The notes beneath the pieces were generated by a model. The model did no database searches. It was not told where the DNA came from and saw only the letters and a program-made list of their open reading frames with translations. The position numbers were made by a program, and so were the translations under genes. From Acidobacteriota bacterium (GTDB lineage: Bacteria; Acidobacteriota; UBA6911; RPQK01; JAJDTT01), in NCBI GenBank assembly GCA_965217775.1, contig CBDCJH010000002.1, positions 1,184,001 through 1,248,000 of the forward strand: a DNA stretch of 64,000 bases, written 5' to 3'. Each line of letters opens with the position of its first letter. Position 1 is the stretch's first letter. Positions 4,865 through 28,426 of this stretch are shown here, piece after piece.

Positions 4865-4870
4865 CGGTCC

Positions 4871-4966
4871 TCAGTGGTAGTCCACAATCTCGACTTCATC
4901 CGGTCCACGATCGGTCCAAACGAAGCAGATACGCCATTGCTGGTTGATGCGAACCGAATGTTGTCC
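4871..4966 (-). pseudogene. higB: HigB toxin 3' remnant
   Basis: GQHSVRINQQWRICFVWTDRGPDEVEIVDYH-stop directly upstream of higA; REP-like hairpins stand where the 5' part should be. Confidence 0.85.
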
Positions 4967-4970
4967 GGAA

Positions 4971-5083
4971 TCGGGGGTTACAAACCCCCGCTCCCAGGAG
5001 ATGGAACTGCAGGGGCGATTTCTAATCGCCCGCTCTTCTCCGGTGAATCGTTACTCTGGAGTTCGGCGGTTGGAAACCGCCGC
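4971..5083. repeat. Cluster of three REP-like palindromes
   Basis: GGGGGTTACAAACCCCC, GGGCGATTTCTAATCGCCC and CGGCGGTTGGAAACCGCCG hairpins. Confidence 0.6.
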
Positions 5084-5087
5084 TCCG

Positions 5088-6839: not shown

Positions 6840-6881
6840 GGAGAGGTTCTCCTTTGTTCTCTTTGGAAATGAAGATTCGAG

Positions 6882-10097: not shown

Positions 10098-10221
10098 TGG
10101 GGGAATTATCCATCGGCCGCGGCATTTGCCCGGCCCGGCGCGCCACGGGACGACAGCGCTCGAAAACCGGGGGTCAGTCTACCACGCAGGGGGTGCCGTC
10201 TCGGCTCGGAACGGTCACTGT

Positions 10222-11595: not shown

Positions 11596-11601
11596 GGGGA
11601 G

Positions 11602-12489: not shown

Positions 12490-12498
12490 AGTTGAAAT

Positions 12499-13374
12499 TT
12501 ATTGGACCATCTTGGCCAACGAGGCGTCAATAGCGGCCAGGATGCGGTCCTCGGTTTCGATGTCCCGGCGCCGTTCCAGCTCCAGGCGGCTTCGTTCGTC
12601 GCGGACGTAACCCAGGGACCGGGCCGCCCAGTAGCGGTGACGGGAATTGCCCTGCTGTAGATAGGGATAGATGCGCCCCATTCGCTCGCGACTGATTCGG
12701 GGCGCCACCACCCACCAGATGTCGGGCGGCACGTCCCGTCCGGCGGCCTCCCGTTCGCTGGCGTAATCGTCGGCCATCCGGGAGAGTTCCGGATTGAAGC
12801 GGGACTCCAGTCCCAGGATGCGCTCAATTCGTATTCCATTGAACAGGCTCTTGAGCACCATCTGGTTGAAGTTCAGTTCCGGGAAGTGGGCCGCCGGGTA
12901 GGGGTTCTCGCAGGCGATGGCTTCCAGCAGAGGAACGATATTGGTCCGGCAGGCGTCGATGGCCGCGTCCAGAAAACGTCCGCGGCCGGGGAGTAGATTC
13001 AATCCCCGGAGCCAACTCTGCTGCTCCCGGCTGTCGCCTTGCCGATAGCACTCCAGAACTGCCTCGGAATATTCGTCGGTAGGTAGATGAGCGACCTTCA
13101 GCAGCAGGATGACACGGCCCAGTTCGTCCAGGCCCCAGTGATCGACGGGAAGGTCCGGGCGCAGGGAATTCCAGCGGCGGGTCTCACGCGGGTCCAGGGC
13201 CAGGGCCTTCTTTCCCAACCAAAAGGAGGCTCCCGCGTAGTTGCCCAACAGCCGGTTCAAATCGACGGGTTCTTCAGTGCTCCGGCACGCCGTCTCGAAC
13301 CAGCTCCGGCCGCGGCTGGAGGCGCGGGCCCTGAGAATCTCAGTCAGAAAATCGATCATGGCCTGTGGGTCCAA
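12499..13374 (-). CDS. eboA: EboA domain protein
   Basis: DACRTN...AIACENPYPA.HF...FNQMVLK.LF...ER.AAGR.VP.D signature. Confidence 0.85.
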   Translation of the reverse strand: MDPQAMIDFLTEILRARASSRGRSWFETACRSTEEPVDLNRLLGNYAGASFWLGKKALALDPRETRRWNSLRPDLPVDHWGLDELGRVILLLKVAHLPTDEYSEAVLECYRQGDSREQQSWLRGLNLLPGRGRFLDAAIDACRTNIVPLLEAIACENPYPAAHFPELNFNQMVLKSLFNGIRIERILGLESRFNPELSRMADDYASEREAAGRDVPPDIWWVVAPRISRERMGRIYPYLQQGNSRHRYWAARSLGYVRDERSRLELERRRDIETEDRILAAIDASLAKMVQ

Positions 13375-13614
13375 GAAACTTCCCGGCCAGCGCGCGCCCA
13401 GTGTAATCTTGCGAGAAAAGGGGTATCTGGAAGCGGCGGCACTTCAGTCACCGATTCCGTGCCGATATTGAAGAGGGGGACAAGCATGTCCCCCCTCCCA
13501 GGGTGCCCCCAGGTTTTCTCAGAAGGAATTGTAGTATTTGGCTCAGAAATCGGAAATATCCGGCGCCACCGGTCATTTGCTACTCGCTGAGGTCAGGCTG
13601 TTCCACGTATCCCA

Positions 13615-13756
13615 ACCCGGCATAGCCGGAACCAAAAATACTTCACCGCAGCGGCGCCTTACCAGGCGCCGACCCTTCGTCTGGCTCCGCTTTGGACCGA
13701 AGAGGGCGCCCACAAGGGGCACCCCTACCGAATATTCTTGGTCAAGTTGCACAAGA
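13615..13756. repeat. About 150-bp intergenic repeat containing a GTAG-type REP, copy 1
   Basis: Inverted similar copy at 44457-44607; core GGGCGCCCACAAGGGGCACCCCTAC at 13704-13728. Confidence 0.75.
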
Positions 13757-13766
13757 CGGACCTGAA

Positions 13767-13946
13767 TCAGGTAAAGAGCTTGGCGGCGATAGCGAGGGTG
13801 ATGGTGATGTTGATACCTAACATGACCTCCAGCCGCAGGAGCCGACGGTCCGGAGAGGCGACTTCCTGAGCGGCGGCTTTGGCCTTGGCTTCGCTGGCCC
13901 CGGCTTCGATCAAGGCATCGTAGGTGTCGGACAGCATGAGTGCCAT
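13767..13946 (-). CDS. 59-aa small membrane-anchored protein (DUF1640/CCDC90-like), absent from the ORF track
   Basis: AGGAAGGAG RBS; MALMLSDTYDALIEAGASEAKAKAAAQEVASPDRRLLRLEVMLGINITITLAIAAKLFT. Confidence 0.75.
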   Translation of the reverse strand: MALMLSDTYDALIEAGASEAKAKAAAQEVASPDRRLLRLEVMLGINITITLAIAAKLFT

Positions 13947-14145
13947 CAGCTTTTCTCCTTCCTGCAGGTAGCTGCCATGTCCAACAACGTAATGATACCA
14001 AACCAGTCTGCAAGTAGCCGATCACGGGGTTCCTGGCTCCGTTTCTCCGTTAGCTTCAACAGTGGTGAAGATCTCCCCACGGGTCCGGTGGATGACCATT
14101 TTTTTGTAGCGCCAAGAATACGGCGACGAACCACGGTCCCATTTC

Positions 14146-16029
14146 TTGCCATGTGTTTACCGCCTGTTGCATCATGCTCAGACTGTGCTGGCGCGTCGAG
14201 GCTTCCTCAGGCTCGGGTTTTTGCTGGTGGGACTTCTCCTGCTTCTCTCCGCTGAGGGGCGGAGTGAGGAGTTCCGGCGCCTCGACCAGGAGCAGATTCC
14301 CCCCGAATTTGCCACGCTGGAAGAGTGGATGGCGAGGGCGCACGAACTCCGGACCCGGATCATGGTCAGTGCGGGTCTGGAACCGCTGCCCGCCAGGATG
14401 CCTTTGGATCCAAGGCTTTCCGCGCCTGTGACGCGGGACGGCTATACGGTCCAGAACGTCAGCCTGGAAACGCTCCCCGGGTTCTACCTGACCGGGAACC
14501 TCTACCGTCCCCTGGGAATCGATCCCCCCTATCCGGCCGTTCTCTGTCCTCATGGCCATTGGAAGAACGGACGGCTCGAGAACGGCGAGCGGTCCTCGGT
14601 CCCCGGCCGCTCAATCAATCTGGCCCGGCGCGGCGCCGTGGTGTTCACCTACTCCATGATCGGTTACGAGGAGAACAAGGACCTCATCCCCCATCGGTTC
14701 GACGAGCCCCGCTACCAGCTCTGGGGTTTCGGTCCGCTGGGCCTTCAGCTCTGGAACAGCCTCCGGGCCTTGGACTTTCTCATCTCCAGGACCGACGTGG
14801 ACCCCGGCCGGATCGGAATGACCGGAGCCTCGGGCGGCGGCACCCAGACTTTCCTGCTGATGGCGGTGGATCCCAGAATCGCGGTGGCGGCGCCGGTGAA
14901 CATGATCTCGGCCCACTACCAGGGGGGATGCATCTGCGAGAACGCTCCCCTCTTGCGCCTGGATTCCATCAATACGGAGATCGGGGCCATGATGGCGCCC
15001 CGGCCGTTGATGCTGGTCTCCACCAGCGGCGATTGGACCTCCAAGACTCCGGACGTGGAGTTTCCGGCCATCCGCTCCGTCTACCGCCTCTTCGGCGCGG
15101 AGGAACGGGTCGCCAATGCCCATTTCGACTACCCGCACAACTACAACCGGGACAGCCGGGAGGCGGTCTATGGATGGTTCGGGAAATGGCTGTGGGGTCA
15201 GGAACGGCCAGATGAAGAGCCGTTCCAGGTGGAGCCGACGGATGCACTGAAAGCCGTCCTTCCGGCGCCGCCGCTGCCTTTGGAAGAGCTCTTCTCCAAC
15301 TTCGCCGCCCGGGCCCGGGGACAGATCGAGATTCATAAACCGCGAGACTGGGAAGGAATCTTTCGCTACCGGGAGGTCTTTGGCCCCGTCTTGCGGCATT
15401 CCCTTGCGGTGCCTCCGTCACCAGGCTCCGTCGAGATGGAGATGCTGCTGCCCGATCCCCATCACCGCGCCGGCCAGTCCGTGCTCGTGGTGCATCCGCG
15501 AGAGCAAGAGGAACGGGCCCGGGCATTGGCGCGCCGATACCGGGATGAGGGACGCTTGGCGTTCCGGATCAGCCCCTATCCCCAGGTCGAGTCGCTGACT
15601 CCTCCCGAAGACGTCAATCACTGGACGACCTACAACCCGACTCCGGCGTCGCGGCGGATTGACCAGGTCCGGCGGGCCTGCCGCGAGATCCTGGACCGGG
15701 GAGACGTGACCGGACTGGACTTGGTGGGGCTGGGAGAGGCGGGGGCGTGGGCCCTGCTCGGCGCCGTCACGGGTCCCTCTGTCGGGAGCGTCACGGTCGA
15801 ATTGAAAGAGTTTTCGGTCGACACGGATCAGGCCTTTCTGGAACGCCTCAACGTGCCCCTGCTGCGGCGGGCTGGAGACCTGAGGACGGCGGCAGTTCTA
15901 TTGGCCCCCGGGCAACTGACGCTCCACGAGCTCGACGAGGGCCCACTGAAGCTCTGGTTCCAGGAGGTCTACGGGGTGGCCGGCGCGGCCGGCATGCTCG
16001 AGTTCCGGAGCGCACCCATCGGCGAGTAG
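14146..16029 (+). CDS. Secreted alpha/beta hydrolase (acetyl xylan esterase-like); start uncertain
   Basis: LCPHGHW, GASGGG nucleophile elbow, QGGCICEN, HNYN. Confidence 0.85.
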   Translation: MPCVYRLLHHAQTVLARRGFLRLGFLLVGLLLLLSAEGRSEEFRRLDQEQIPPEFATLEEWMARAHELRTRIMVSAGLEPLPARMPLDPRLSAPVTRDGYTVQNVSLETLPGFYLTGNLYRPLGIDPPYPAVLCPHGHWKNGRLENGERSSVPGRSINLARRGAVVFTYSMIGYEENKDLIPHRFDEPRYQLWGFGPLGLQLWNSLRALDFLISRTDVDPGRIGMTGASGGGTQTFLLMAVDPRIAVAAPVNMISAHYQGGCICENAPLLRLDSINTEIGAMMAPRPLMLVSTSGDWTSKTPDVEFPAIRSVYRLFGAEERVANAHFDYPHNYNRDSREAVYGWFGKWLWGQERPDEEPFQVEPTDALKAVLPAPPLPLEELFSNFAARARGQIEIHKPRDWEGIFRYREVFGPVLRHSLAVPPSPGSVEMEMLLPDPHHRAGQSVLVVHPREQEERARALARRYRDEGRLAFRISPYPQVESLTPPEDVNHWTTYNPTPASRRIDQVRRACREILDRGDVTGLDLVGLGEAGAWALLGAVTGPSVGSVTVELKEFSVDTDQAFLERLNVPLLRRAGDLRTAAVLLAPGQLTLHELDEGPLKLWFQEVYGVAGAAGMLEFRSAPIGE

Positions 16030-16085: not shown

Positions 16086-17435
16086 ATGACCGACCCATCT
16101 CATGCGGAACAGACGCAAACAGCGCCCCGGGGATTCCGGCCCGTCCTGCGAAAGCTGGGTCCCGGGCTCATCATCTCCGGGTCCATCGTGGGTTCGGGAG
16201 AGCTCATCGCCACCACCACCCTCGGCGCCGAGGTCGGCTTCGTCGCCCTCTGGCTCATCATCCTGAGCTGCGGCATCAAGGTCGTGGTCCAGGAGGAGCT
16301 GGGACGGTACGTGGTGTCCTCCGGAGAGACCGCCCTGCAGGGGCTGAACCGGGTCCCGGGACCCCGGTGGCGGGTATCGTGGGTGGTCTGGTGCTGGTGG
16401 ATCATGACCCTGGGAGTCGTCGTCCAGGGGGGCGGCATCGTCGGGGGGGTCGGTCAGGTCTTCCACCTCTTTCTGCCTCAGATCAGCGGGACCGCATGGG
16501 CCATGGTCGCCGCGGTCACGGTGATGGCGCTTCTGTTCCGGGGGCACTACGGCAGGGTGGAGAAGATCTGTGTGGGGATGGTGGTCAGCTTCACCTTCGT
16601 GACCATCGCCTGCGCCGTCCTGCTGGGGTGGACCCCTTTCTCCCCCACTGCTGAAGATTTCCTCTCCGGCCTGCGGTTTGGCCTTCCCGAGGGAGGGATC
16701 GCCGTTGCTTTCGCCGCCTTCGGAATCACCGGAGTGGGGGCGACGGAGTTGATCATGTATCCCTACTGGTGCCTGGAGAAAGGCTACTCGCGCTTCGTGG
16801 GCCCCCGGGAAGAGGGCGCCGCTTGGGAAGGACGGGCGCGAGGCTGGATACGGGTCATGCAGGCGGATGTGCTCATGGCCATGGTGGTCTACACAACGGC
16901 TACGGTGGCCTTCTACATTCTGGGTGCGGCGGTCCTTCACGGGATGGGGACGGTCCCGGCCGGCTACGGAATGGTCTCCACCCTGTCGAACATGTACACC
17001 TCCACCCTGGGACAGGGGGCCTTCTACCTCTTTCTGGTGGGGGCCTTCTTCGTGCTCTACTCGACTCTCTTCGCCGGCGTCGCCAGCAGTTCCCGGGTCA
17101 TCACGGACTTCCTGCATTTGGTGGGAGTGGTCCGGATCGAGGGCGAGAGCCAGCTCCTGTTCTGGAGGCGGGTGGTGATCGTGGTGGTCCCGACGCTCTA
17201 CGTCGTACTCTACGCATGGGTGGCGCAGCCGGTCTTCATGGTCATCATCGGCGGGATCTTCCAGGCGTGCATGCTCCCCGTCATCAGTTTCTCGGCCATC
17301 TACCTCCGCTATCGCCACACCGACCGGGCGATCCGGCCGAATCTCGCGGTCGACGTGCTGCTCTGGGCCTGCTCCACCGTCATGCTCCTCTTTGCCGTCT
17401 ACTACGTGGCCAAGAGGCTCGGGTTCGGCGCCTGA
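16086..17435 (+). CDS. Nramp-family (divalent metal/APC) transporter
   Basis: LGPGLIISGSIVGSGELI, FGITGVGATEL..YPYW; about 11 TM segments. Confidence 0.88.
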   Translation: MTDPSHAEQTQTAPRGFRPVLRKLGPGLIISGSIVGSGELIATTTLGAEVGFVALWLIILSCGIKVVVQEELGRYVVSSGETALQGLNRVPGPRWRVSWVVWCWWIMTLGVVVQGGGIVGGVGQVFHLFLPQISGTAWAMVAAVTVMALLFRGHYGRVEKICVGMVVSFTFVTIACAVLLGWTPFSPTAEDFLSGLRFGLPEGGIAVAFAAFGITGVGATELIMYPYWCLEKGYSRFVGPREEGAAWEGRARGWIRVMQADVLMAMVVYTTATVAFYILGAAVLHGMGTVPAGYGMVSTLSNMYTSTLGQGAFYLFLVGAFFVLYSTLFAGVASSSRVITDFLHLVGVVRIEGESQLLFWRRVVIVVVPTLYVVLYAWVAQPVFMVIIGGIFQACMLPVISFSAIYLRYRHTDRAIRPNLAVDVLLWACSTVMLLFAVYYVAKRLGFGA

Positions 17436-17457
17436 CGGTCCGTCACATGGGTTGTCC

Positions 17458-17612
17458 CTACGGCACCGGTTTCCTGAAGATGACGATGTGCTGGTGGGGC
17501 AGGAGGTCCAGCGTCTCGACCCTGACCAGGGGATGCGCTGAGATCTGGCGCCAGACCTGATCCTGGTTCATCTTGTGCAGCCGGACGATGGGAACCGCCG
17601 GATCTTCCGCCC
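17458..17612 (-). pseudogene. Displaced 3' end of SAM methyltransferase (variant A, ...IFRKPVP)
   Basis: Homologous to the C-terminus of 27509-28231; cut next to the GGGGACAG motif at 17624. Confidence 0.85.
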
Positions 17613-17928
17613 TGCGGGAAAAAGGGGACAGTCTATTTTTCCGATTCCCGGAACGGGAACGGGTCCAACACATTGAGCTAGCCGCGAAGCGAATCTAGGG
17701 CATTCCCGAGTTCCGTTTCTACGCGATTGCGGATGGGATCAAGCAGCTCTTGCATGGCCGAGCCGCCGGGATTGGACCGCGTCGTCGCGATCCTCGTTCA
17801 AACCTGCTTCCCCTGTTCTCCTGAACCGTCAGAAAAATGAGAAAAGTCCAGAGTCTATTGGGTGGTTCCCGTGATTTGGGTCGTTCGGTGCCGCAGGGGC
17901 AGAATCGACGGTCGGCGATCAGGCGAGT

Positions 17929-18864
17929 CTACGTGACGAAGGCGTGCGAGCGCTGCTCCCGCAAGGAAAACAGCAATCCGCCCATTTGGGGGATGGGGTG
18001 TCGGCGACGACGGTATCGACCTTGCCGCCGATATGTTTCCAGTAGCTGCGCCACCTTCTCTGCCGGCCCGACGGCCAATCCATCCGTCAGAAATCGAAAA
18101 CGCCGGCGAAAAGCTCCGGCACGGGTGAATCCACGTCGCTGGTCCTGATGGAGGATCCACCGGGGGATCGCGGCCTGGTTGTCCCGGGTGGGGACGGCTC
18201 CTCGATAGTGCAAGCGAGCCCGGTAACTGCTGTACACGTCCGTTCCGGGATCCGAGGGGAATAGTTCCTCCAGTGGAATCAGATCTTGATCCTCGCCGGT
18301 GAGCCTCCAGCGGGCCGAACCCCACTTCCACTGCTCGGGTCGTTTGACCAGTCCGGCTCGGATGGCATTGAGTTCCACGTAGAGGATGGCGTCCTGGACG
18401 GCTTCGCTTCCCAAGAGTTCCGGGTTCTTGAAACGATCACTCCAAAAATGGCCTCGCCGTGCAAACTTCAGGTTGAACTACCGAGCATATAGCCCGTTCA
18501 AGTTCTGCATCAGTTTCGACACGTCAAATAGACGCTGGTTGAAAGCCTCCCATTGGGCGGCGGTCCAACCGGCGGTCTTCTCCTCTGCCTGTCGTCCATA
18601 AAGTTTGTCGGCGCTCTCCATCAACTCCTCGCGGGACAAGGGCCGAGGTTTCTCAAAATGGACGATAAAGTGGAAATGATTGCCCATGATCTGGAAAGCG
18701 GCCAAACGACACCGGTAGGCATTGACGTAGAACAACATCATGTCCAGGAATTTGTGCCGGGCTTGGCGGTCTTCAAAGGGGAACCAATCGGGCCGGCCGG
18801 CGACTCGATTGGTGAGGTAATAGAAGGCGGCTTCTGTGCTTTTGTGTCGTGCGGTTCGGGCCAT
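17929..18864 (-). pseudogene. HUH/Y1 (RAYT-like) transposase copy 1, inactivated by an in-frame amber codon
   Basis: 936 nt, colinear with copies 2 and 3; TAG at 18478-18480 where the paralogs have TGG (YAR-W). Confidence 0.9.
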
Positions 18865-18981
18865 GGCCACGGTCCTCAGTGAATCGAATCGGACTCGGTC
18901 TCGGAGGGGAGTCGGTGCGTACCCCTGATGACAACAACGATTCAAAACTGAGAAAGGCGAAAAACGAACGTCCCAAAAAAC

Positions 18982-19038
18982 AGACTGTCCCCTTCCCGCA
19001 CGCACGTCCCCTTCTCACGCACGTCCCCTTCTCGCACG
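18982..19038 (-). repeat. End motif of RAYT copy 1 with tandem GAAGGGGACGTGCG units
   Basis: Minus strand: GAAGGGGAC-GTGCGTGA-GAAGGGGAC-GTGCGTGCGG-GAAGGGGAC-AGTCT. Confidence 0.8.
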
Positions 19039-19119
19039 AAGGAGGGCACCCATGACGGTCCGTGACAAGAGTCGCCGCGGATTTGGACGAGCGTTGGTTC
19101 GCGGCCGACGGCAAGGGAT

Positions 19120-19143
19120 GGCGACCACAAGGGTCGCCCCTGC
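19120..19143. repeat. GTAG-type REP palindrome
   Basis: GGCGACCACAAGGGTCGCCCCTGC; related copy at 27475-27498. Confidence 0.65.
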
Positions 19144-19152
19144 GGGGGTTGT

Positions 19153-19423
19153 CTACCCGGTCGGCTTCTGGAAGATGACGATGTGCTGCCGGGGCAGGAG
19201 GTCGAGCGTCTCCACCCAGACCAGCGGATGCGCTGAGATCTCGCGCCGGACCTGGTCCAGGCTCATCTTGTGGAGCCGGAGGATGGGAACCGTCGGGTCC
19301 TCGGCCCGGTACTCCACCAGGACCAGGCGCCCACCCGGCTTCAGCGCCCGGTGAATTCCCCGGATCATCTCCCAGGGATGAGAGAGTTCGTGGTAGACAT
19401 CCACCAGGAGGGCGAGGTCCACG
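19153..19423 (-). pseudogene. Displaced 3' end of SAM methyltransferase (variant B, ...IFQKPTG)
   Basis: Slightly diverged copy of 27509-27779; ends exactly at the CG that begins the junction motif. Confidence 0.88.
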
Positions 19424-19469
19424 AAAAAAAGGGACCAAAAAAAGGGACAGTCTATTTTTCTCGTTCTTC
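19422..19469 (+). repeat. Approximately 48-bp left-end direct repeat (also 22428-22477, 23620-23667, 25938-25985)
   Basis: CGAAAAAAAGGGAC-C(G/A)AAAAAAAGGGAC-AGTCTATTTTTC(T/A)CGTT(T)CTTC seen four times. Confidence 0.9.
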
Positions 19470-19752
19470 CCATGGCCGGGTCCAGAACCTTAAGATTCAG
19501 CACCGCCTCGGCCGGGTCCAACTTGAGCAGTTCAGCTTTCCGTTGTTGCTGGGGCCGTCTATCGTCGCTGAGTCGCTCGGCTTTGTCCTCGAACGCCTTG
19601 AGACGCTCTTCAGCCAGCGGTTTCAGGGTCTGCTCAACGATCAGATCCACCAGCTCCTGGGGCGTGAAAAAGCTGCCGCAGTCCTTGCGGGCATAGGGAT
19701 TGGGACGAATGGAGATCTTGCCGTCACCTTTACGGATCGGTTCCTGCTCTAG

Positions 19753-21823
19753 CCCGAGTTTACCGTATTGGAGATCAGGATAAAGATAAGTTGTTTTTTT
19801 GCAAAGAGATAGGGCAGGTGTCCCGTATGACCTACGGAGCCGAACCAAGGGGTCGGATGGCGTGTTTTTCGAGTCCCAGGACTTCGTACATCGTGCGCTG
19901 TTCGTCCGTCATCTGCGAGAGCGTCGTCCGGAGTTCGGGCTCGCCGCCCTCCTCCCGCGCTGGATACAGCACGTCGACCTCGCGGATCCCGCTGAGCGCG
20001 TCCAGCAGCGCGGGGATCGAATCCTGCACGCCGTGGCGGCTCAGTTCCCGCTGCAGCAGGCCGCACAGCATCAGCGCCAGCACGCAGCAGAACACATGCA
20101 CCGCGATCTTCTGGTCCGTCCAGTGGTATTGTGGCCGAATGGCGATGCAGTTGCTGTCCTTGAGCTGCCGGAAGGCGCTCTCGACATGATGTTGCGCGCG
20201 GTAGCCGCGCACCAGCTCGGCATCGCTCCAGCCCGCCTGGTCGGTGAACAGCAGGGTCTTGCCCAGTAACCTGCGCTGAAGCTGCTCCCAGGCGCGCCGC
20301 TGGAAGCGATAATTCACCTTCGGCAAGCCGTCCACCTCACGCACCTGAACGGCGAACAGGTCCCGCATGTGCCGGGCCCGCAGCCAGCCGTCGACCTTCT
20401 TGCGCGTGCCGGCCAGGCTCGGCTTGCGTCCCCCCCGGATCTTGCCCTCGCGCCAGCGCCACAACTGCCACTGCAGGGCGCGCAGGTGCTGGCGCCGCTT
20501 AGCGATCTCGCGCAGCAGCGTCCGACATTGGGCGTCGAACAGCGCTTGGTTCCAAGTCACCAGCACCGTGCGCTGGACGCCGAACACTTTGGACTCGGTG
20601 CGGTAGGAGCGCACGCCGGCCAGCCCGTCGGCCTCCAGCGAGCGCATCTGGTCCGCAGGCACGGCCAGCAGGTGCGGATGCTGGGTGGGGACCAGCGAGC
20701 CGATGAAGTGGAACGGGCTGCGCTCGACCCAGTCCAAGTTCGGGCGCGAGTTGTTGCCCTTGTCGAAGACCAGGGTGACCGTCTCGGTCCCGGCGGCGAT
20801 CTCCCGGTAGCGCCGGGCCAAGTCGGCGGCGAGGCTTTGGAACGTTGGCGCGTCGGGGCGGTTGCCGGGATAGGTGCGATGCAGCAGGGGCAGGCGGAAG
20901 TCGGCCGTGACCAGCAGGGCCACGCCGATGATGCGCAACGACCTGCGGCCCTCCTTGCTGTGACCGCGCTGAGCCAGTTGGGAGCGCTGGTTGAAGGAAT
21001 TGATGTAGGTAAAGAAGTTAGTGGCGTCAAACAGCACTTGGCCCAGGTCGAGGCGGAACTCGCGGGTCATGGCGGCAACGATGTCGCGTTCAATGGCGGG
21101 GAGGGCGGGGACGGGGACGCGGTGCATATGGTCCCAGAAGCGCTGGCTGGTGAGCTGGTTGGAGCGCAGGGGGAGCAGGCGGCGCAGGGCGGTGGAGTTG
21201 AACCAACGGGCGAGGCTGGCCTTGGAGCCGGGGGCGAGGCAGCGGTTGAGGACGGCGGCGAGCAAGTAGGTGCCGACGGAGGGACCGGAGCCGCGCTTGG
21301 GGAGATGGCGGTCGATGTGCTCGACCAACTGCAAGCGGCGGGCGAGGGTAAGCAGGGCGGCCGAGGCCCCGAATTCGCGCACGACCGCCTGGAGCGGCTG
21401 GGCGGGGGCGGGGGCGGCGCGGAGCTTCTCGATGATCTTGTCGGCGCGACCGAGATAGGTCTGGGAGACGATCTTGGGTTTGCCGTCGACGCGCTTGCAG
21501 ACGCGAGCGTAGTAGTAGGGGCGGCCCCGGATGATCTTCTTGACGAGGCTGGCCATATATTTAGGTCATACAATAGCGTATGGATCCGACCGGTGTCAAG
21601 CGATATATCCGTAAAAACTTCATTGATATATGGAATAAGAGTTCTGGAGAAGACCTGACAAATCCCACCATATGTTAGGTCATACAAAAATCAATGGGAC
21701 GAGAGCAAGGGCCTCGGCCGGGCTGGGTGATAAACCCTTCCTTATCAATAACTTGAATCTGAATCGTCGGTCTGCCCACGCGCTAGGGCAATGCTATGCT
21801 GGTGCGAACACGGTAAAGTCGAG
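19753..21823 (-). mobile_element. IS1634-family insertion sequence
   Basis: Inverted ends CCCGAGTTTACCG / CTCGACTTTACCG; CTAG duplicated at 19749-19752 and 21824-21827; internal TAGGTCATAC motifs at 19825 (inverted), 21562 and 21676. Confidence 0.88.
19832..21556 (-). CDS. IS1634-family DDE transposase
   Basis: LFDATNF, RGHSKE, VFDKGNNS, VESAFRQLK...IRPQYHWTDQKI..HVF. Confidence 0.92.
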   Translation of the reverse strand: MASLVKKIIRGRPYYYARVCKRVDGKPKIVSQTYLGRADKIIEKLRAAPAPAQPLQAVVREFGASAALLTLARRLQLVEHIDRHLPKRGSGPSVGTYLLAAVLNRCLAPGSKASLARWFNSTALRRLLPLRSNQLTSQRFWDHMHRVPVPALPAIERDIVAAMTREFRLDLGQVLFDATNFFTYINSFNQRSQLAQRGHSKEGRRSLRIIGVALLVTADFRLPLLHRTYPGNRPDAPTFQSLAADLARRYREIAAGTETVTLVFDKGNNSRPNLDWVERSPFHFIGSLVPTQHPHLLAVPADQMRSLEADGLAGVRSYRTESKVFGVQRTVLVTWNQALFDAQCRTLLREIAKRRQHLRALQWQLWRWREGKIRGGRKPSLAGTRKKVDGWLRARHMRDLFAVQVREVDGLPKVNYRFQRRAWEQLQRRLLGKTLLFTDQAGWSDAELVRGYRAQHHVESAFRQLKDSNCIAIRPQYHWTDQKIAVHVFCCVLALMLCGLLQRELSRHGVQDSIPALLDALSGIREVDVLYPAREEGGEPELRTTLSQMTDEQRTMYEVLGLEKHAIRPLGSAP

Positions 21824-22544
21824 CTAGGAGCCTCTCGTAAATCGATCCGAGTTGTTGCACCGACATGTCGCGGAAGTTGACGAAGTGCCTTCGCCCCTCC
21901 CTTCCCTGGGCATGGCTGAGGGCATGGATGATGGGAGCGATGGTAGCGTCGGGGAGGCGAGCCTGTTCCAGCAGCGGCGAGGCACCAGCCGCAAATAGCC
22001 CCCCGTTGTAGGGGGGCAGTCCAAGGGACGGATCGCCCTGGTCGATGATTCTAAAGAGATTGACCAAGCGGTCGTAGTAGGTGGTGACGACGGTCGAAAA
22101 GACGTCCAGGGACCCCATCCTGCGAGCGATGTCGTCCCGGACATGCTTGCGCAATCCGTAGTCATCGTAACGCTCGTCGTTGACCGGTAACAGATTCCGG
22201 TCCTCAGCATAGAGGACAAAGAGCAACCGATAGAGGAAGATCAAGGCTGCGTGGCGAACCTGGGGCAGGTCCTTGCCCGTGGCATTGGCCATCGCCTCCA
22301 CGAGGTGGGGAAAGGCGCTCTCGAAGACGACCCCAGACAGATCTTGGGCAACCTGCTCCTCATAGCGTTTCCCCTCCACCAAGGCGTGTTCCAGGAACGT
22401 GCCGGTTGCACCTTCCCGGAGGGTGAACGAAAAAAAGGGACCGAAAAAAAGGGACAGTCTATTTTTCTCGTTTCTTCGTGAACATCACGAAGCCAGGCGG
22501 CGAATCTGACATCACTGCAAAAAAAGCGGGTACCATTACGGACT

Positions 22545-23567
22545 GTGGCGGACACGTTACGGTTCGGTCCAGACACCATGAATGCACCGTGGGGGCTGGA
22601 CTCCAGGCTGAAGCTTGTTGTGTTGGCATGCGACTTTTTCAAGGCCGAAAAAATCGCAGCACACCATGCGGCCATTGGTAAGGAACTGCCGAAGCAGGGA
22701 AGTCCGACACCGCTTGCCGTAGCCGACTTTCTCCATTACCTGCAAGTCAAGAAGGCGTTCCCAAAGGCGCCGAATCCCTTGCATGTAGCGCTAATCCTGG
22801 AGCGGATGGTCTCCGCGGGAGTTCTCGTCCACGCGGGGAGCGGCACGGCATTCGCGGGACTCCAGAACCACTACATCTACTTCCTGACAGCGCACGAAGC
22901 ACGACGGGGTCTGTTCCGATTGGTGCCCGTGCTTGGCCCAGAGTACCTCTATAGACTATGTGAGCCAAGCTTGGTCCATATCACGGGAACCAGAGCGGGC
23001 GCTGTGGTCGCCGGAACCGGCCTCGTCGTCGACACGCGCCACGTCCTTACCTGTCGCCATGTCGTATCCGACATGACGGTGGATCCGCGGCAGACGTTTC
23101 AGGGGAGGGAATACGTGGTCGACCCCGGCTCGATCCACCGACACGCCGAGGTTGACGTGGCGGTCGTCCGCGTGTGGGGGGCGCCGTTGTCTCCGCTGAA
23201 CGGAGCCCTCATGCAAGCTCCCATTGTAGCAAAGACCGTTTATACGCTTGGCTACCCGAAGCTTCCCGGCCTCCGAGATGCGTCCGTGACGATGCAGCCG
23301 GGAGCAGTGACGAACGAATCGGTCACTTCATTGGCGGGGGAGACGCTGTTCCTCTACTCGGCTATTTCCAGACCAGGGAACAGCGGCGGACCAGTCGTGT
23401 CCGAGGACGGCTACGTGGTGGGCCTCTCTATCGTGGATGCCACTGGCCAGTACCGGACCAACGAGGCATTCTCACCGCACTATGCAGGCATCCCCGCGCA
23501 GGTCGTCGTCCAGGCGGTGAAGGATCTCGGTTTGGGCATCGAATTGCCGTTCGAGCCCTACGAGTGA
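22545..23567 (+). CDS. Trypsin-like (S1) serine protease with uncharacterised N-terminal domain; start may be ATG 22578
   Basis: Catalytic triad LTCRH, VDVAVV, GNSGGP; no signal peptide. Confidence 0.88.
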   Translation: MADTLRFGPDTMNAPWGLDSRLKLVVLACDFFKAEKIAAHHAAIGKELPKQGSPTPLAVADFLHYLQVKKAFPKAPNPLHVALILERMVSAGVLVHAGSGTAFAGLQNHYIYFLTAHEARRGLFRLVPVLGPEYLYRLCEPSLVHITGTRAGAVVAGTGLVVDTRHVLTCRHVVSDMTVDPRQTFQGREYVVDPGSIHRHAEVDVAVVRVWGAPLSPLNGALMQAPIVAKTVYTLGYPKLPGLRDASVTMQPGAVTNESVTSLAGETLFLYSAISRPGNSGGPVVSEDGYVVGLSIVDATGQYRTNEAFSPHYAGIPAQVVVQAVKDLGLGIELPFEPYE

Positions 23568-23824
23568 CGCACTCAGCAGGTCTCCTGGCTCAGCGTAGGC
23601 CCCTCCGCTTCGATGTTAGCGAAAAAGGGACCGAAAAAAAGGGACAGTCTATTTTTCACGTTTCTTCAGTTTCATTCAGAGACGGGAAGTGTGCTGGTTT
23701 TCGTGAGGTTCCTTCGCCTTTCCTGGTTCTGAGTCGTTGTTGTCATCAGAGGCAGACGTGAGAGGTGAGAGGTGCGAACCCGAACCGACTCCCTCGCGAG
23801 TCCGATTCACCGAGGACCGTGCCC

Positions 23825-24760
23825 ATGCCCCGAACCGCGCGACACAAGAGCAAGGAAGCCGCCTTCTATCACCTCACCAATCGAGTCACCGGCTGGACCG
23901 ATTGGTTCCCATTCGAAGACCGGCGAGCCCGTCGCAAACTCCTGGACATGATGTTGTTCTACGTCAGTGTCTACCGGTGTCGTTTGGCCGCGTTTCAGAT
24001 CATGGGCAATCACTTCCACTTCGTCGTCCATTTTGAGAAGCCTCGCTCCTTGTCCCGCAAGGAGTTGATGGAGAGCGCCGACAAGCTTTATGGGCGAAAG
24101 GCAGAGAAGAAAACCGCCGATTGGACCGTCGCCCAATGGAAGGCTTTCAACCAGCGTCTCTTTGACGTGTCGAAACTGATGGCGAATGTGGATGGGATCT
24201 ATGCCCGGTGGTACAACCGCCAGTTTCGACGGCGAGGGCATTTTTGGAGTGAACGTTTCAAGAACCCGGAACTATTGGGAACCGAAGCGGTCCAAGACGC
24301 CATTTTTTACGTGGAACTCAACGCCGTCCGGGCCGGACTGGTCAAGCGGCCCGAGCAGTGGAAGTGGGGCTCAGCCCGCTGGAGACTGTTCGGCAAAGAT
24401 CAAGACCTGATTCCACTGGAGGAACTGTTTCCCTCGGATCCCGGAACGGACCTGTACAGCAGTTACCGGGCTCGTTTGTATTATCGGGGGGCCGTCCCGA
24501 CCCGACCCAACCAGGCTGCGATCCCCCAGTGGATCCTCCATCAGGAGCAGCGACGTGGATTTACCCGTGCCGGAGCCTTTCGCCGGCGTTTGCGGTTTCT
24601 GACGGACGGGTTGGCCGTCGGTCCGGCCGAGAAGGTGGCGCAATTGCTGGAGACGTATCGGCAACAAGGTCGATATCGGCGTCGCCGACACCCCATTCCC
24701 CAACTGGGCGGAGTGATGTTTTCCCTGCGGGAGCAACGCTCGCACGCCTTCCTATCGTAG
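23825..24760 (+). CDS. HUH/Y1 (RAYT-like) tyrosine transposase copy 2
   Basis: YHLTNR, MGNHFH (HUH), GHFWSERFK, YVELNAVRAGLV..PEQWKWGS. Confidence 0.92.
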   Translation: MPRTARHKSKEAAFYHLTNRVTGWTDWFPFEDRRARRKLLDMMLFYVSVYRCRLAAFQIMGNHFHFVVHFEKPRSLSRKELMESADKLYGRKAEKKTADWTVAQWKAFNQRLFDVSKLMANVDGIYARWYNRQFRRRGHFWSERFKNPELLGTEAVQDAIFYVELNAVRAGLVKRPEQWKWGSARWRLFGKDQDLIPLEELFPSDPGTDLYSSYRARLYYRGAVPTRPNQAAIPQWILHQEQRRGFTRAGAFRRRLRFLTDGLAVGPAEKVAQLLETYRQQGRYRRRRHPIPQLGGVMFSLREQRSHAFLS

Positions 24761-24989
24761 ACTCGCCTGATCTCCGTTTGTCGATTCTGCCACCGCGGCA
24801 CCGACTGACCGAGATCACGGGAAACGCCCAATAGACTGAATTGTCCTGTTGAATGCGTGGAAAGTCCTTCGGACTTCCATCCATTTGCCAGAGGTTCACC
24901 GTTCTGCTTCCTGCTTCCGGGTGGGATTCTCAAGACTCGCGACACGCAACACAGAGCCGGAAAAAGGGGACAGTCTATTTTCTTTTCCC

Positions 24990-25455
24990 CACCGCAACGG
25001 GGTTTTCTCCTCAACGGCGATCCGGCGGGCCGGACGCTGTTTACCTATCGATCTGCCGACTTGGTTCGCTGGAGCCAGGCGCCGGCGTTGTCCTTCGCCC
25101 GCTACGGCTATCGATCGGCTCCCGTGAGCCGGGTGGAGGAGGCCCATACCTCCAATGGGAACTGGGACCGCGGCAATGTCCTCGTTTCCACCTACCTCCA
25201 GTGGCACGGAGGTCCCGACTTGAAATCCACCACCATGGACGTCGGGCTTCTGGTCAGCAACGACGGCCTCCATTTTCGAGAGCCTGTCCCCGATTTTTCC
25301 TGGATCCCCCGGGGCGCTCCAGGGACCTGGGAAGGGGGAGGCACCTGGGGCGTATCGTTCCTCAACGTGGACAACGAGACGCGCATCTACTATGGCGGCA
25401 CCAACAGCCTGGCGGCACTCGCGACCGGGGGCGTCGGGTTGGCGACGATCAAACG
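24990..25455 (+). pseudogene. Internal fragment of a beta-propeller hydrolase-like gene
   Basis: RSADLVRW, VSNDGLHF, TRIYYGG, GVGLAT; lacks native start and stop; bracketed by junction motifs. Confidence 0.7.
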
Positions 25456-25552
25456 CGGTTGGAAGGTGGCGTACGGTTGGAAGGTGGCGTAGGAAGGTGG
25501 CGTAGGAAGGTGGCGTAGGAAGGTGGCGTATTCAAGACTGTCCCTTTCTGTT
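25456..25552 (+). repeat. Tandem GGAAGGTGGCGTA x5 abutting an inverted GGGACAGTCT
   Basis: Direct reading; second copy with 3 units at 27352-27417. Confidence 0.9.
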
Positions 25553-25560
25553 CTCGGAGG

Positions 25561-25937
25561 CCCGTCATCAGTTTCTCGGCCATCTACCTCCGCTACCGCC
25601 ACACCGACCGGGCGATCCGGCCGAGTCTAGCGGTCGACGTGCTGCTCTGGGCCTGCTCCACCGTCATGCTCCTCTTTGCCGTCTACTACGTGGCCAAGAG
25701 GCTCGGGTTCGGCGCCTGACGGCCCGTCACATGGGTTGTCCCTACGGCACCGGTTTCCTGAAGATGACGATGTGCTGGTGGGGCAGGAGGTCCAGCGTCT
25801 CGACCCTGACCAGGGGATGCGCTGAGATCTGGCGCCAGACCTGATCCTGGTTCATCTTGTGCAGCCGGACGATGGGAACCGCCGGATCTTCCGCCCGGTA
25901 CTCCACCAGGACCAGCCGCCCGCCCGGTTTCAGGGCG
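25561..25937. pseudogene. Duplicated Nramp 3' end (+, to 25719) and methyltransferase variant A 3' end (-, 25742-25937)
   Basis: 25561-25896 matches 17277-17612 at a constant offset of 8284 with a few substitutions. Confidence 0.9.
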
Positions 25938-26150
25938 CAAAAAAAGGGACCAAAAAAAGGGACAGTCTATTTTTCTCGTTTCTTCAGTTTCATTCAGCGT
26001 TTCTTCAGTTTCATTCAGAGACGGGAAGTGTGCTGGTTTTCGTGAGGTTCTTTCGCCTTTCCTGGTTCTGAGTCGTTGTTGTCATCAGAGGTGAGAGGTG
26101 CGAACCCGAACCGACTCCCTCGCGAGTCCGATTCACCGAGGACCGTGCCC

Positions 26151-27086
26151 ATGCCCCGAACCGCGCGACACAAGAGCAAGGAAGCCGCCTTCTATCACCT
26201 CACCAATCGTGTCACCGGCTGGACCGATTGGTTCCCCTTCGAAGACCCGCGAGCCCGTCGCAAACTCCTGAACCTGATGTTGTTCTACGTTAGTGTCTAC
26301 CGGTGTCGTCTGGCCGCATTTCAGATCATGGGCAATCATTTCCACCTCGTCGTCCATTTTGAGAAGCCTCGCTGCTTGTGCCGCAAGGAGTTGGAGGAGA
26401 GCGCCCGCAAGCTTTATGGGCGAAAAACCGATGTGGAAACCGGCGGTTGGACCGACGACCAGTGGGAGGCTTTCAACCAGCGTCTGTTTGACGTGTCGAA
26501 ACTGATGGCGAATGTGGATGGGATCTATGCCCGGTGGTACAACCGCCAGTTTCGACGGCGAGGGCATTTTTGGAGTGAACGTTTCAAGAACCCGGAACTA
26601 TTGGGAACCGAAGCGGTCCAAGACGCCATTCTTTACGTGGAACTCAACGCCGTCCGGGCCGGACTGGTCAAGCGGCCCGAGCAGTGGAAGTGGGGCTCAG
26701 CCCGCTGGAGACTGTTCGGCAAAGATCAAGACCTGATTCCACTGGAGGAACTGTTTCCCTCGGATCCCGGAACGGACCTGTACAGCAGTTACCGGGCTCG
26801 TTTGTATTATCGGGGGGCCGTCCCGACCCGGCCCAACCAGGCTGCGATCCCCCGGTGGATCCTCCATCAGGAGCAGCGACGTGGATTTACCCGTGCCGGA
26901 GCCTTTCGCCGGCGTTTGCGGTTTCTGACGGACGGGTTGGCCGTCGGGCCGGCAGAGAAGGTGGCGCAATTGCTGGAGACGTATCGGCAACAAGGTCGAT
27001 ATCGGCGTCGCCGACACCCCATTCCCCAACTGGGCGGAGTGATGTTTTCCCTGCGGGAGCAACGCTCGCACGCCTTCCTATCGTAG
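26151..27086 (+). CDS. HUH/Y1 (RAYT-like) tyrosine transposase copy 3
   Basis: Near-identical to copy 2, including about 200 bp of both flanks. Confidence 0.92.
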   Translation: MPRTARHKSKEAAFYHLTNRVTGWTDWFPFEDPRARRKLLNLMLFYVSVYRCRLAAFQIMGNHFHLVVHFEKPRCLCRKELEESARKLYGRKTDVETGGWTDDQWEAFNQRLFDVSKLMANVDGIYARWYNRQFRRRGHFWSERFKNPELLGTEAVQDAILYVELNAVRAGLVKRPEQWKWGSARWRLFGKDQDLIPLEELFPSDPGTDLYSSYRARLYYRGAVPTRPNQAAIPRWILHQEQRRGFTRAGAFRRRLRFLTDGLAVGPAEKVAQLLETYRQQGRYRRRRHPIPQLGGVMFSLREQRSHAFLS

Positions 27087-27351
27087 ACTCGCCTGATCTC
27101 CGTCCGTCGATTCTGCCACCGCGGCACCGACTGACCGAGATCACGGGAAACGCCCAATAGACTGCATTGTCCTGTTGAATGTGTGGAAAGTCCTTCGGAC
27201 TTCCATCCATTTGCCAGAGGTTCACCGTTCTGCTTCCTGCTTCCGGGTGGGATTCTCAAGACTCGCGACACGCAACACAGAGCCGGAAAAAGGGGACAGT
27301 CTATTTTCCCCGCTCATTCATATCTGAAGGCATCTCAGGATTGAGCGCGGA

Positions 27352-27417
27352 CGGTTGGAAGGTGGCGTTGGAAGGTGGCGTTGGAAGGTGGCGTTTTCAA
27401 GACTGTCCCTTTCTGTT
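27352..27417 (+). repeat. Tandem TTGGAAGGTGGCG x3 abutting an inverted GGGACAGTCT
   Basis: Same element as 25456-25552 with a different unit length and number. Confidence 0.88.
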
Positions 27418-27508
27418 TGCGTGTTTGCGTGACTGAATTGGACGGGCGTTGGATCGCAGCCGACGGTAAGGGACGGCGACCACAAGGGCCGCCCGTACGG
27501 GAGGTGTC

Positions 27509-28231
27509 CTACCCGGTCGGCTTCTGGAAGATGACGATGTGCTGGCGGGGCAGGAGGTCGAGCGTCTCCACCCAGACCAGCGGATGCGCCGAGATCTCGC
27601 GCCGGACCTGGTCCTGGCTCATCTTGTGGAGCCGAAGGATGGGAACCGCCGGGTCCTCGGCCCGGTACTCTACCAGGACCAGGCGCCCACCCGGCTTCAG
27701 CGACCGGTGAATTCCCCGGATCATCTCCCAGGGATGAGAGAACTCGTGGTAGACGTCCACCAGGAGGGCGAGGTCCACGCTCTCGGGAGAGAGACCAGGG
27801 TCCTGGATGGTCCCTCGGATGGGTTTCACATTGCCGATTTTTCTCTGGGCGGAGCGGCGGCGGATGATCTGGAGCATCTCGTCCTGAATGTCTACCGCCA
27901 GCACCCGCCCCCCGGATCCCACCCGCTTGGCCAAACGAAAAGAAAAGTAGCCGGATCCGGCCCCGATGTCGGCGATGGTCATTCCCGTCAAGGTTCCCAG
28001 AGCGTCCAACAGCGCCTCAGGGTCCTCTTCAACCTCCCGTTCGGGGCGTTCCAGCCAGGAGGCGCCCTGGTGTCCCATGACGCGGGAGATCTCACGGCCC
28101 AGGTAGAACTTGCCGGTTCCGTGGGGATCCGTGCTGGTCCGGTGCTCGTAGCGAGGCGGTTCCGCACCGGAAATGCCCTGAAGCAGCAACGGAAGGATGC
28201 AGGCAAGGAGCGGAAATGGAGTCGATCTCAT
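27509..28231 (-). CDS. Class I SAM-dependent methyltransferase with signal peptide
   Basis: IADIGAGSGYF, AVDIQ, VDVYHEF, LKPGGRLVLVEY; N-terminus MRSTPFPLLACILPLLL. Confidence 0.9.
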   Translation of the reverse strand: MRSTPFPLLACILPLLLQGISGAEPPRYEHRTSTDPHGTGKFYLGREISRVMGHQGASWLERPEREVEEDPEALLDALGTLTGMTIADIGAGSGYFSFRLAKRVGSGGRVLAVDIQDEMLQIIRRRSAQRKIGNVKPIRGTIQDPGLSPESVDLALLVDVYHEFSHPWEMIRGIHRSLKPGGRLVLVEYRAEDPAVPILRLHKMSQDQVRREISAHPLVWVETLDLLPRQHIVIFQKPTG

Positions 28232-28426
28232 GGCAAGCCATTTTATCAGCAGACGGGATGCCAGGAGGTTGAACAGAGTTGGGAATTGGCCGTAGAGGGG
28301 CTGTTCGATAGTCCGGCGTCCGGTTGATTTGGCCAGGCCCCTGCGGTATAAAATTCCCAATACGGCCGGTAAAAGGCAGGCTCGGAACGGGAGCCGCGAG
28401 CGGTTTTTCGAATCGGGAGGAATTCC

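Follow-up and report, generated by a model that had tools for sequence, protein, structure and literature searches.

We analysed a 64-kb stretch of DNA (the window, to which coordinates without prefix refer) from G000, a metagenome-assembled genome (MAG) of 6.43 Mb from an Acidobacteriota bacterium, with an estimated contamination of 7.5% and with contigs denoted C1: and C2: below. Between the genes for an Nramp-family transporter and a methyltransferase, this window carries a direct repeat of 48-50 bp in four copies, two of which form the left ends of elements that encode a Y1 transposase (tnpA), while the other two stand alone next to unrelated DNA (Table 1). An earlier account made from the sequence alone (the sequence-only reading) had described four copies of about 48 bp, of which the first two stop at a common CTTC and are followed by cargo and the last two continue into the transposase, and had regarded them as direct copies of one transposon end. 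These statements hold: a genome-wide blastn search with the 48-mer yields those four copies, no further full copy and one partial match of 37 nt (89%), the similarity of copies 1 and 2 to the transposase-linked copies ends immediately past CTTC, and copies 3 and 4 run on into tnpA. Small differences distinguish the copies. Copy 1 lacks one T within CGTT(T)CTTC, copy 3 has A5 in place of A7 and TCACG in place of TCTCG, copy 4 starts with GC/CA and not with CG, and copies 2 and 3 have a derived G in common.

The repeat is a complete left terminal-repeat unit, in which the core GGGACAGTC lies between a purine-rich leader and a pyrimidine-rich trailer. When up to two mismatches are allowed, the 15-nt core is found eight times in the window compared to 0.06 times expected, and a count of eight was reached in none of 100 shuffles; the number of cores in the window is not due to chance. 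With seven forward and three reverse cores between 17625 and 27409, the cluster exceeds the extent given in the sequence-only reading. Since the doubled leader A7GGGAC(C) is specific to the window locus and missing from the orthologous element of the congener G003, which has a single leader, this comparison indicates that the four copies arose by local amplification (congeners are records titled Acidobacteriota MAGs; G003 and similar labels denote individual congener or relative genomes). Two observations on the copies themselves are added here. A 21-bp tandem duplication (CGTTTCTTCAGTTTCATTCAG, twice) at 25977-26018 begins in the trailer of copy 4, and a minus-strand open frame (19153-19908) runs from the methylase fragment described below, via the 16 codons of copy 1, into the final 92 codons of the methyltransferase, its continuity in phase probably being a coincidence.

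Beyond the window, the unit is a modular repeat of the whole genome. Exact matches to GGGACAGTC number 255, compared to 26 for the reversed control, and of 21 genomes searched, 7 contain a 20-nt version of the core, nearly all of these being congeneric. The 244 leader-plus-core hits in G000 are clustered, only 18 of them being isolated, and units of the GGGACAGTC family stand solo more than 100 times; a unit is also present at C2:3349791. In other subfamilies, solo units stop at a fixed point 15-18 nt past the core (ending, e.g., in ..CCGGGACG or ..GTGTGTTTC). Therefore, CTTC represents the 3' edge of the complete unit and not a common truncation point, as had been proposed by the sequence-only reading. 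Two further properties of the unit were considered and set aside. Single-strand transposons are expected to show a replication-strand bias; here, 145 of 243 cores have leading-strand orientation, which is weak, and the cores are clustered, hence not independent. Likewise, a function of the unit as promoter for downstream cargo was rejected because none of the copies contains a sigma-70-like site, the one such site in 7 kb lying inside the insertion sequence (IS).

The transposase of the window is a 311-aa Y1 HUH protein, the translation of which shows an HFH and a YVELNA motif. It matches Pfam PF01797 (Y1_Tnp) with 30.2 and 28.0 bits (cut-off 23) and scores 47.6 bits, under the cut-off of 80, against NF047646 (REP_Tyr_transpos), the family of tyrosine transposases associated with REPs (RAYTs). 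A PDB sequence search returned a sole, borderline match, TnpA(REP) 4ER8 (E = 0.38). About 130 of the 311 aa extend past the Y1 core, and Pfam assigns no domain there. In total, G000 contains 11 full-length tnpA copies, one with a stop, and one fragment, with amino-acid identities of 85-100%. In all 11, forward cores precede the tnpA start by 127-273 bp (probe positions) and an inverted core follows the stop, the latter at roughly 0.15-0.4 kb, except for element E1 of the window, the inverted core of which (25536-25544) lies about 0.8 kb past the stop, beyond the third insert (see below). Congeners show this layout as well: among 43 transposase loci with full flanks, an upstream core is present in 40, a downstream core in 40 and both in 38. 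Element ends in G000 are often multiplied two to four times; the spacers between them measure 26-110 bp, and variable short tandem repeats lie alongside. In most copies the repeat motif reads GGGGACAG, which fits GGGGWSAS, while the four 48-mers read AGGGACAG, one base off; a GTAG foot is not present in the units examined.

This layout is that of the TIRtrons, in which a RAYT-like gene (TIRYT) is flanked by GGGGWSAS inverted repeats, with an Acidobacteria group among them, and the repeats of which make up families that include singles, dimers and clusters (Di Nocera et al. 2013, PMC3733652). TIRYTs are regarded as the equivalent of subclass 2.1 of TnpA(Y1) and of group 1 of the RAYTs as defined by Bertels (PMC3733652; Quentin et al., PMC6006769; PMC5581495), a feature of this subclass being a long C-terminal extension with a helix-turn-helix / DnaA_C-like domain (PMC6006769). 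Judged by layout and motif, with the protein set against published TIRYTs by description, we assign the element to the TIRYT/TIRtron kind, i.e. a multicopy element with a RAYT-like Y1 transposase gene flanked by inverted copies of the unit. The two forward elements of the window, E1 and E2, are about 99% identical apart from a patch (23884-24160 versus 26210-26486) of about 89%, which looks like gene conversion from another element copy. Elsewhere, units are fused to internal tnpA points or to the region after its stop (C2:2873385 (2873031-2874926), 2085258, 4257542 and locus L036); these fusions are nested or deleted element copies.

Further repeats and Y1 genes were encountered in G000. Directly before the inverted right repeat lie three to five tandem copies of GGAAGGTGGCGT(A/T) (25471-25535 and 27354-27395), a position that in other element copies is taken by short tandem repeats of different kinds. 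Another dispersed repeat, 60-150 bp long and distinct from these, is found at 17700-17852 and at the right ends of five other element copies, thus forming an alternative right-end region; it recurs about 30 times in the genome, contig C1 included. Two smaller Y1 genes, at C2:5635604-5635789 and C2:4665981-4666208, have open frames of 240 and 225 aa. The former is flanked by a palindromic repeat of the GGGGGACA..TGTCCCCC type, and gene and repeat together are a second, more classical RAYT/REP pair in G000.

The DNA between the units has sharp edges and is foreign. In the first spacer, 279 + 600 bp of a methylase gene remain when the inserted IS1634-family element is left aside, and the second is a protease module of 1142 bp in which the open reading frame (ORF) is preceded by about 65 bp and followed by about 50 bp; both agree with the earlier estimates of about 0.89 and 1.14 kb. 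The methylase fragment is an internal gene piece, antisense and truncated at both ends, which the IS1634-family element entered later; a 99.0% identical copy of the latter near C2:64-66 kb also defines the IS ends. A third insert replaces about 45 bp directly behind the internal forward unit of E1, as seen by comparison with E2 and G003. By eye it looks glycoside-hydrolase-like, but it has no Pfam or NCBIfam match; a contig of run X6 covers 24953-25508 without mismatch. Donor loci within G000 were rejected, since neither the methylase fragment, nor the protease DNA, nor the third insert has a second copy in the genome apart from weak paralogues. Donors among 20 relatives were sought as well: the protease DNA is present in none of them, and the methylase fragment has one 75% match (G008), located at a contig end, in keeping with the foreign origin that the sequence-only reading had assumed. 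The protease has homologues (84% and 65%) on two short metagenome contigs, where their neighbours are different and no repeat core is present. The GC content of the inserts (58-60%, third insert 64.5%, window 62.5%) is not telling. Only one of the three inserts holds a whole ORF; because the other two are internal gene fragments, one of them antisense, the notion of functional cassettes is not supported.

Table 1. Positions of the features between the conserved flanks of the repeat locus (window coordinates).
Position	Strand	Feature	Evidence or remark
16086..17435	+	Nramp-family transporter, conserved left flank	PF01566 53 bits; G003 synteny
17449..17612	-	3' fragment (164 bp) of methyltransferase allele c', stops at element end	17277-17612 repeats 25561-25896, 99%
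17613..19045	-	Inverted, broken third element copy; tnpA 17932-18864 with one stop	
17625; 18977-18991	+; -	Repeats of the inverted element: forward core 17625; own left repeat 18977-18991	
19053..19421	-	Empty-site-type sequence (intergenic + hairpin repeat) and methyltransferase 3' 278 bp	93.6% vs 27435-27777
19422..19469	+	Repeat copy 1 (solo left terminal-repeat unit)	48 nt
19470..19748	-	DISARM DrmMI / type IIG methylase fragment, distal	PADLOC DrmMI 551-609/1347; ends at motif I (..LDPAMG)
19749..21827	-	IS1634-family IS, transposase 19832-21556	NF033559 285 bits
21828..22427	-	DISARM DrmMI / type IIG methylase fragment, proximal (MmeI_hel)	PF20465; PADLOC DrmMI 223-435/1347
22428..22477	+	Repeat copy 2 (solo unit)	50 nt
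22478..23619	+	Single-gene module: complete trypsin-like serine protease, ORF 22545-23567	Trypsin_2 74 bits
23620..23667	+	Repeat copy 3, left end of element E1	48 nt
23668..24985	+	E1 interior: tnpA 23825-24760 (311 aa), internal forward unit 24957-24985	Y1_Tnp 30.2 bits
24986..25470	+	Third foreign insert, internal gene fragment	Comparison with E2 and G003
25471..25552	-	GGAAGGTGGCGT tandem repeats and E1 inverted right terminal repeat, core 25536-25544	
25561..25937	+	Nramp 3' end duplicate and 205 bp of methyltransferase fragment c'	99% vs 17277-17576; G003 same arrangement
25938..27417	+	Element E2: repeat copy 4 (25937/8 to 25985), tnpA 26151-27086	
27283-27311; 27401-27409		E2, further parts: internal forward unit 27283-27311; inverted right repeat, core 27401-27409	
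27509..28232	-	Intact class I SAM (S-adenosylmethionine) methyltransferase, conserved right flank	Methyltransf_31 and others; G003 synteny

In the congener G003, the order at this site is Nramp, 3' fragment of the methyltransferase allele, one element, methyltransferase and a DUF1501 gene. Further evidence comes from short-read contigs of four runs (X1, X6, X9, X10), a contig-based approach that drops rare forms. Here, contigs of X1 and X10 join the Nramp end directly to the region before the methyltransferase (17443>27435; 17432>19053), and thus an empty state exists in related strains. Because the congener has one element at this position and the related-strain contigs have none, the array is strain-specific. 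The G003-type module occurs twice in the window, at 17277-19421 with the inverted, broken element and at 25561-27779 with E2, the two modules having 336 bp at 99% and 343 bp at 93.6% in common. Between them lies a block of 6.1 kb that extends from the forward unit at 19422, which cuts off the methyltransferase 3' end at 19421, to the inverted unit of E1. In order, this block consists of unit, methylase fragment with IS, unit, protease gene and unit-tnpA (E1), followed by the internal forward unit, the third foreign fragment, the tandem repeats and the inverted unit. Several histories fit this arrangement, among them tandem duplication, Campbell-type integration of an allele-bearing circle and in-situ inversion. 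Downstream of the methyltransferase, an insert of about 75 bp with the hairpin GGCGACC-ACAAG-GGTCGCC is present at 19080-19153 and 27435-27508; its 30-35-nt core recurs at several other genome sites, and the insert is missing from the c' allele and from G003.

The joints between units and foreign DNA were inspected base by base. A loose-end contig of X6 aligns from 19466 rightward and has different letters before 19466; on the minus strand, these letters (hand translation) extend ..LDPAMG by SGHFL.., as expected for the rest of methyltransferase motif I. The contig thus carries the native methylase running into 19466, so that CTTC at 19466-19469 belongs both to the donor and to the unit trailer; a full trailer would give one T more than observed at this joint. 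In the 84% homologue, the sequence matching the protease joint is CTTCGT, compared to ..TTCTTC followed, past the joint, by GT in the window, which is only suggestive of a CTTC native to the protease donor. For the 5' side of copy 2, comparison with the 75% homologue in G008 shows a native gene that extends past 22427-22431. The sequence-only reading had further noted CG at three of the four 5' junctions. This count holds, but a fixed boundary does not follow from it: the CG at copy 1 is also native methyltransferase sequence (compare 27776-27779), so that it could be either unit or target, and a CG target site is inseparable from a CG that forms the first two bases of the amplified unit.

The joints of the restriction-modification fragment with the repeat, of repeat, protease and repeat, and of the repeat with the third insert are reproduced without mismatch by contigs of X6 and X9, although short-read contigs cannot phase left versus right flanks across the repeat. 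The depth of the inserts is 13-18, compared to about 60 for the flanks; the insert-bearing strain is therefore a minority. Among the joints listed, beyond which there are 14 further ones, no unit-to-unit joint with loss of a spacer was recognised in the contigs, stretches that no contig covers being uninformative. The listed joints 22467>23694, 17643>23692, 17641>24788 and 24885>25532 and the 27237>23393 type stem from other element copies or deletion derivatives elsewhere.

To evaluate how general the architecture is, a 60-nt probe from each locus's own left end was used at 54 transposase loci, of which 51 were evaluable. Left-end copies of at least 40 nt more than 300 bp away exist at the two window loci only. 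At one locus, a tandem duplication contains a 39-nt copy at a distance of 562 bp; at three, a stretch of about 30 nt, corresponding to the unit alone, recurs farther than 1 kb away; and other transposase loci carry short-spaced multiplied ends. Clusters with at least three cores also occur where there is no transposase, and 10 of these 16 are wholly co-oriented with kilobase gaps. In one of them (C2:2110357-2122570, corresponding to 3357-15570 of locus L085), 9/9 cores point in one direction over 12 kb and carry the subfamily trailer ACCTCCTCTC; further co-oriented arrays lie at C2:1523860-1527333, C2:1818623-1822792 and C1:122736-128590. These arrays comprise 5-9 units of the subfamily GAGAAG-GGGACAGTC-ACCTCCTCTC with gaps of 0.4-3 kb and no transposase nearby, and the genes between their units include oxidoreductases, an integrase fragment, DUF2806, a DUF1156 piece and a Thoeris ThsB-like TIR protein.

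Among congeners, the units mark the breakpoints of insertions, deletions and reordering. When L085 is compared in eight congeners, block edges lie at most about 15 nt from the units at 3369, 4721-4754, 7876, 8809, 9586-9615, 10964-10992 and 15578 (locus coordinates), while the block borders at 2374-2538 and 6233 are not at units. The order of blocks in this 18-kb array differs among congeners, with a unit at most borders; the block 8809-9608, for instance, precedes the oxidoreductase gene in four genomes and follows it in G004 (loci L090-L095 in G001-G004, G006 and G007). For each of four isolated units tested, out of the 18, at least one congener has 0.9-6.8 kb more between the same flanks. 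One of these, at C2:2766150-2766800 (L100), is a solo unit between two flanks whose distance in G003 and G002 (L125, L126) amounts to 6.3-6.8 kb, and in both genomes it lies amid the extra DNA with about 3 kb on each side; both unit edges are therefore breakpoints. These comparisons indicate that unit edges are hot spots of indels and reordering in the genus. Besides this, a segment of 445 bp (L085 15578-16022) starts at a unit leader and is present many times in congeners, with at least about 20 matches listed in G006, and several times in G000; it may be a small mobile element that ends in the unit.

The explanation that we favour, and to which we give about an even chance, is repeat-anchored cutting and rejoining at unit edges, catalysed by the Y1 transposase. 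Hereby, an ancestral single element between the Nramp and methyltransferase genes would have been the seed of the 10-kb patchwork, and its unit was amplified locally to four direct copies, two of which now stand solo exactly at joints of unrelated DNA (methyltransferase 3' end, unit, methylase fragment, unit, protease gene, unit-tnpA). Each joint would stem from strands that were cut and rejoined with the unit edges as anchor, the most likely agent being the unit-bound Y1 transposase, which may join to relaxed-specificity sites in other DNA that would have CTTC in common with the unit trailer. The outcome would be one-ended aberrant events, i.e. adjacent deletions, insertions and duplications, and not an ordered acquisition array; of the polarised addition that had been suggested from the sequence alone, the locus bears no sign. 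As a whole, the locus looks like an eroding defence island. The comparisons above establish the anatomy of the locus, the local origin of the copies, the foreign and fragmentary nature of the inserts, the sharp edges and the coincidence of units of this family with indel and reordering breakpoints in congeners; the enzyme, the position of cleavage and the direction of each event (insertion or deletion) we infer. A precedent is provided by E. coli TnpA(REP), which in vitro, when bound to a REP, cleaves single-stranded DNA on either side of it and performs strand transfer, needs only C followed by T at its site and cuts over more than 400 nt around the BIME (Ton-Hoang et al. 2012, PMC3333891). 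For tandem BIMEs with variable linkers, the same authors propose excision, integration and rolling-circle amplification (PMC3333891). By analogy, a TnpA(REP)-like activity would explain the multiplied ends, the tandem repeats, the unit-tnpA deletion derivatives and the solo units at a shared word.

Several points weigh against this explanation. Y1 enzymes usually need a hairpin. In seven units folded against shuffled sequence, z ranged from +0.22 to -1.64, no better than shuffles, and in 114 units there is no leader-trailer covariation beyond column frequencies; we thus rejected a hairpin in the unit as unsupported, leader and trailer being complementary in composition only. Cutting of the unit edge by the transposase is presumed from the joints and the TnpA(REP) precedent. 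As regards the consensus at donor breakpoints that the sequence-only reading had envisaged, a short motif (CTTC) common to trailer and donor emerged, but from two joints, of which one needs the loss of 1 nt and the other, merely suggestive one relies on an 84% homologue; at other joints, the third insert follows TTTC and the units of another subfamily end in GACG. Moreover, a kilobase-spaced array of the full left end was found at 0/49 other transposase loci, which in part is the outcome (single ends elsewhere) that the sequence-only reading had itself named as speaking against it. Finally, the tandem arrangement of the two locus alleles (17277-19421, 25561-27779) is taken from the assembly of a MAG with 7.5% contamination, and the history of the locus needs several steps that cannot be ordered.

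Among the alternatives, host recombination alone appears unlikely, if least so, with the dispersed 30-50-bp units acting as short homologies (RecA-dependent or in microhomology-mediated end joining) and the transposase having merely spread the units. Rearrangements between dispersed repeats require no dedicated enzyme, the joints show 4-nt microhomology, and the long direct duplications of the two modules resemble homologous recombination between alleles of different strains. However, exchange within a repeat cannot put non-element DNA at the very edge of the unit, breakpoints lie on both sides of units, and two independent joints fall at the same trailer position. We regard as still somewhat less probable a dedicated HUH cassette system, a general form of the sequence-only reading, in which the Y1 transposase would cut out a unit together with adjoining DNA as a single-strand circle and insert it again at another unit, the DNA being cut at a short word (CTTC) with the GGGACAGTC unit and pasted behind another unit. 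In its favour are the co-oriented direct units, the sharp edges and the foreign inserts of single-gene size, the donor sites with CTTC in common with the trailer and the derived G in copies 2 and 3 around the protease, as expected if one insertion had duplicated the unit; the transposase-less clusters with their wholly co-oriented majority and the differing block order among congeners point the same way. It is difficult to reconcile with the fragmentary inserts, one antisense, and with the lack of such an array at the 49 other transposase loci, and among the joints listed for the four runs there is no circle or excision joint, in contigs that drop rare forms. Furthermore, end states cannot separate deletion from insertion, co-orientation may mirror gene direction, and the other arrays use the GTCAC-trailer subfamily, which is not tied to a known enzyme.

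Two further accounts find little favour with us. Four or five ordinary full-length insertions nearby, followed by random deletions that left two left ends, would agree with the element deletion derivatives seen elsewhere (C2:2873385, 2085258, 4257542); yet both solo copies would then not be expected to end at the same trailer position with the unit complete, and the locus-specific doubled leader in all four copies argues against an origin from the other nine element copies, which renders this account quite improbable. Least probable of all is an assembly artefact, in which strain haplotypes were stitched together at the repeats. It would be in keeping with the contamination of the MAG, with the coexistence of several strains with different locus structures in the same runs, with the lower depth of the unique inserts and with two locus alleles in tandem. 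Nevertheless, each joint recurs, free of mismatches, in short-read contigs from two runs, and solo units beside foreign DNA therefore exist in some strain, whatever their order.

The cellular role of RAYT/TIRYT-type Y1 transposases is still open, and the term TIRYT is rare in the literature. Together with its empty and single-element states, the locus offers a testable picture in which kilobases of DNA are gained, lost and reordered at unit edges, and connects TIRYT repeats, in a way that can be tested, with the modular reshuffling of accessory DNA. If the enzyme makes the joints, these elements would be drivers of genome mosaicism and defence-island turnover across the genus; if it is not responsible, the repeat would still be a precise marker of recombination hot spots. 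Should a cassette system be true, it would build and reshuffle co-oriented gene-sized arrays, defence genes included, across these Acidobacteriota genomes, thus being a functional analogue of integrons with a different enzyme class, and the co-oriented repeats would acquire a cognate enzyme.

With respect to known systems, the sequence-only reading had likened the locus to CRISPR and integron arrays, the defining features of both of which are absent. Compared to CRISPR, the spacers are of 1.1-3.0 kb and unequal, and no cas family was found among the 12 ORFs scanned (16-30 kb). With integron arrays (attC/attI/IntI, the sedentary chromosomal ones included), the locus shares co-oriented short repeats and gene-sized, strain-variable inserts, and integron recombination uses folded single strands. 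In contrast to integrons, there is no Phage_integrase or IntI among the same ORFs, no imperfect palindrome of the attC type and no common orientation of cassettes, and the inserts are mostly gene fragments. Helitrons and IS91/ISCR elements likewise have an HUH enzyme, one fixed and one ill-defined end, and genes or fragments accumulating at the element end; they differ in their Y2 or Rep-helicase proteins and ori/ter ends from the Y1 transposase and inverted repeats found here. Members of the IS200/IS605 family (IS608, ISDra2) are multicopy Y1 elements as well, and insert 3' of a short target word that equals the left cleavage site, a logic which CTTC at repeat and donor would fit. Unlike their distinct subterminal hairpins, however, the ends here are inverted copies of one unit, and the 311-aa protein has a long C-terminal extension.

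A further comparison is with the REPtrons (RAYT / TnpA(REP), REP-BIME), which also combine a Y1 enzyme with cognate short repeats around the gene and in the genome, and for which the model of tandem amplification with variable linkers matches the multiplied ends and variable tandem repeats observed here (PMC3333891). Whereas classical RAYTs/REPtrons have one gene copy and palindromic GTAG hairpins, the element is multicopy, lacks GTAG and has no supported hairpin; its transposase remains under the NF047646 cut-off, and its spacers are of kilobase length. With the TIRtrons, to which we assign it, the element has in common the RAYT-like Y1 HUH gene, inverted repeats without GTAG, the fit to GGGGWSAS and a moderately abundant family (PMC3733652). 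It departs from them in its 11 gene copies per genome, its multiplied ends and the separation of left units by 1.1-3 kb of foreign DNA, kilobase inserts between units not being mentioned in the text of PMC3733652 consulted for this comparison. In conclusion, the reading as a CRISPR- or integron-like system is not established, and the structure belongs to an element class that has been described but barely studied.

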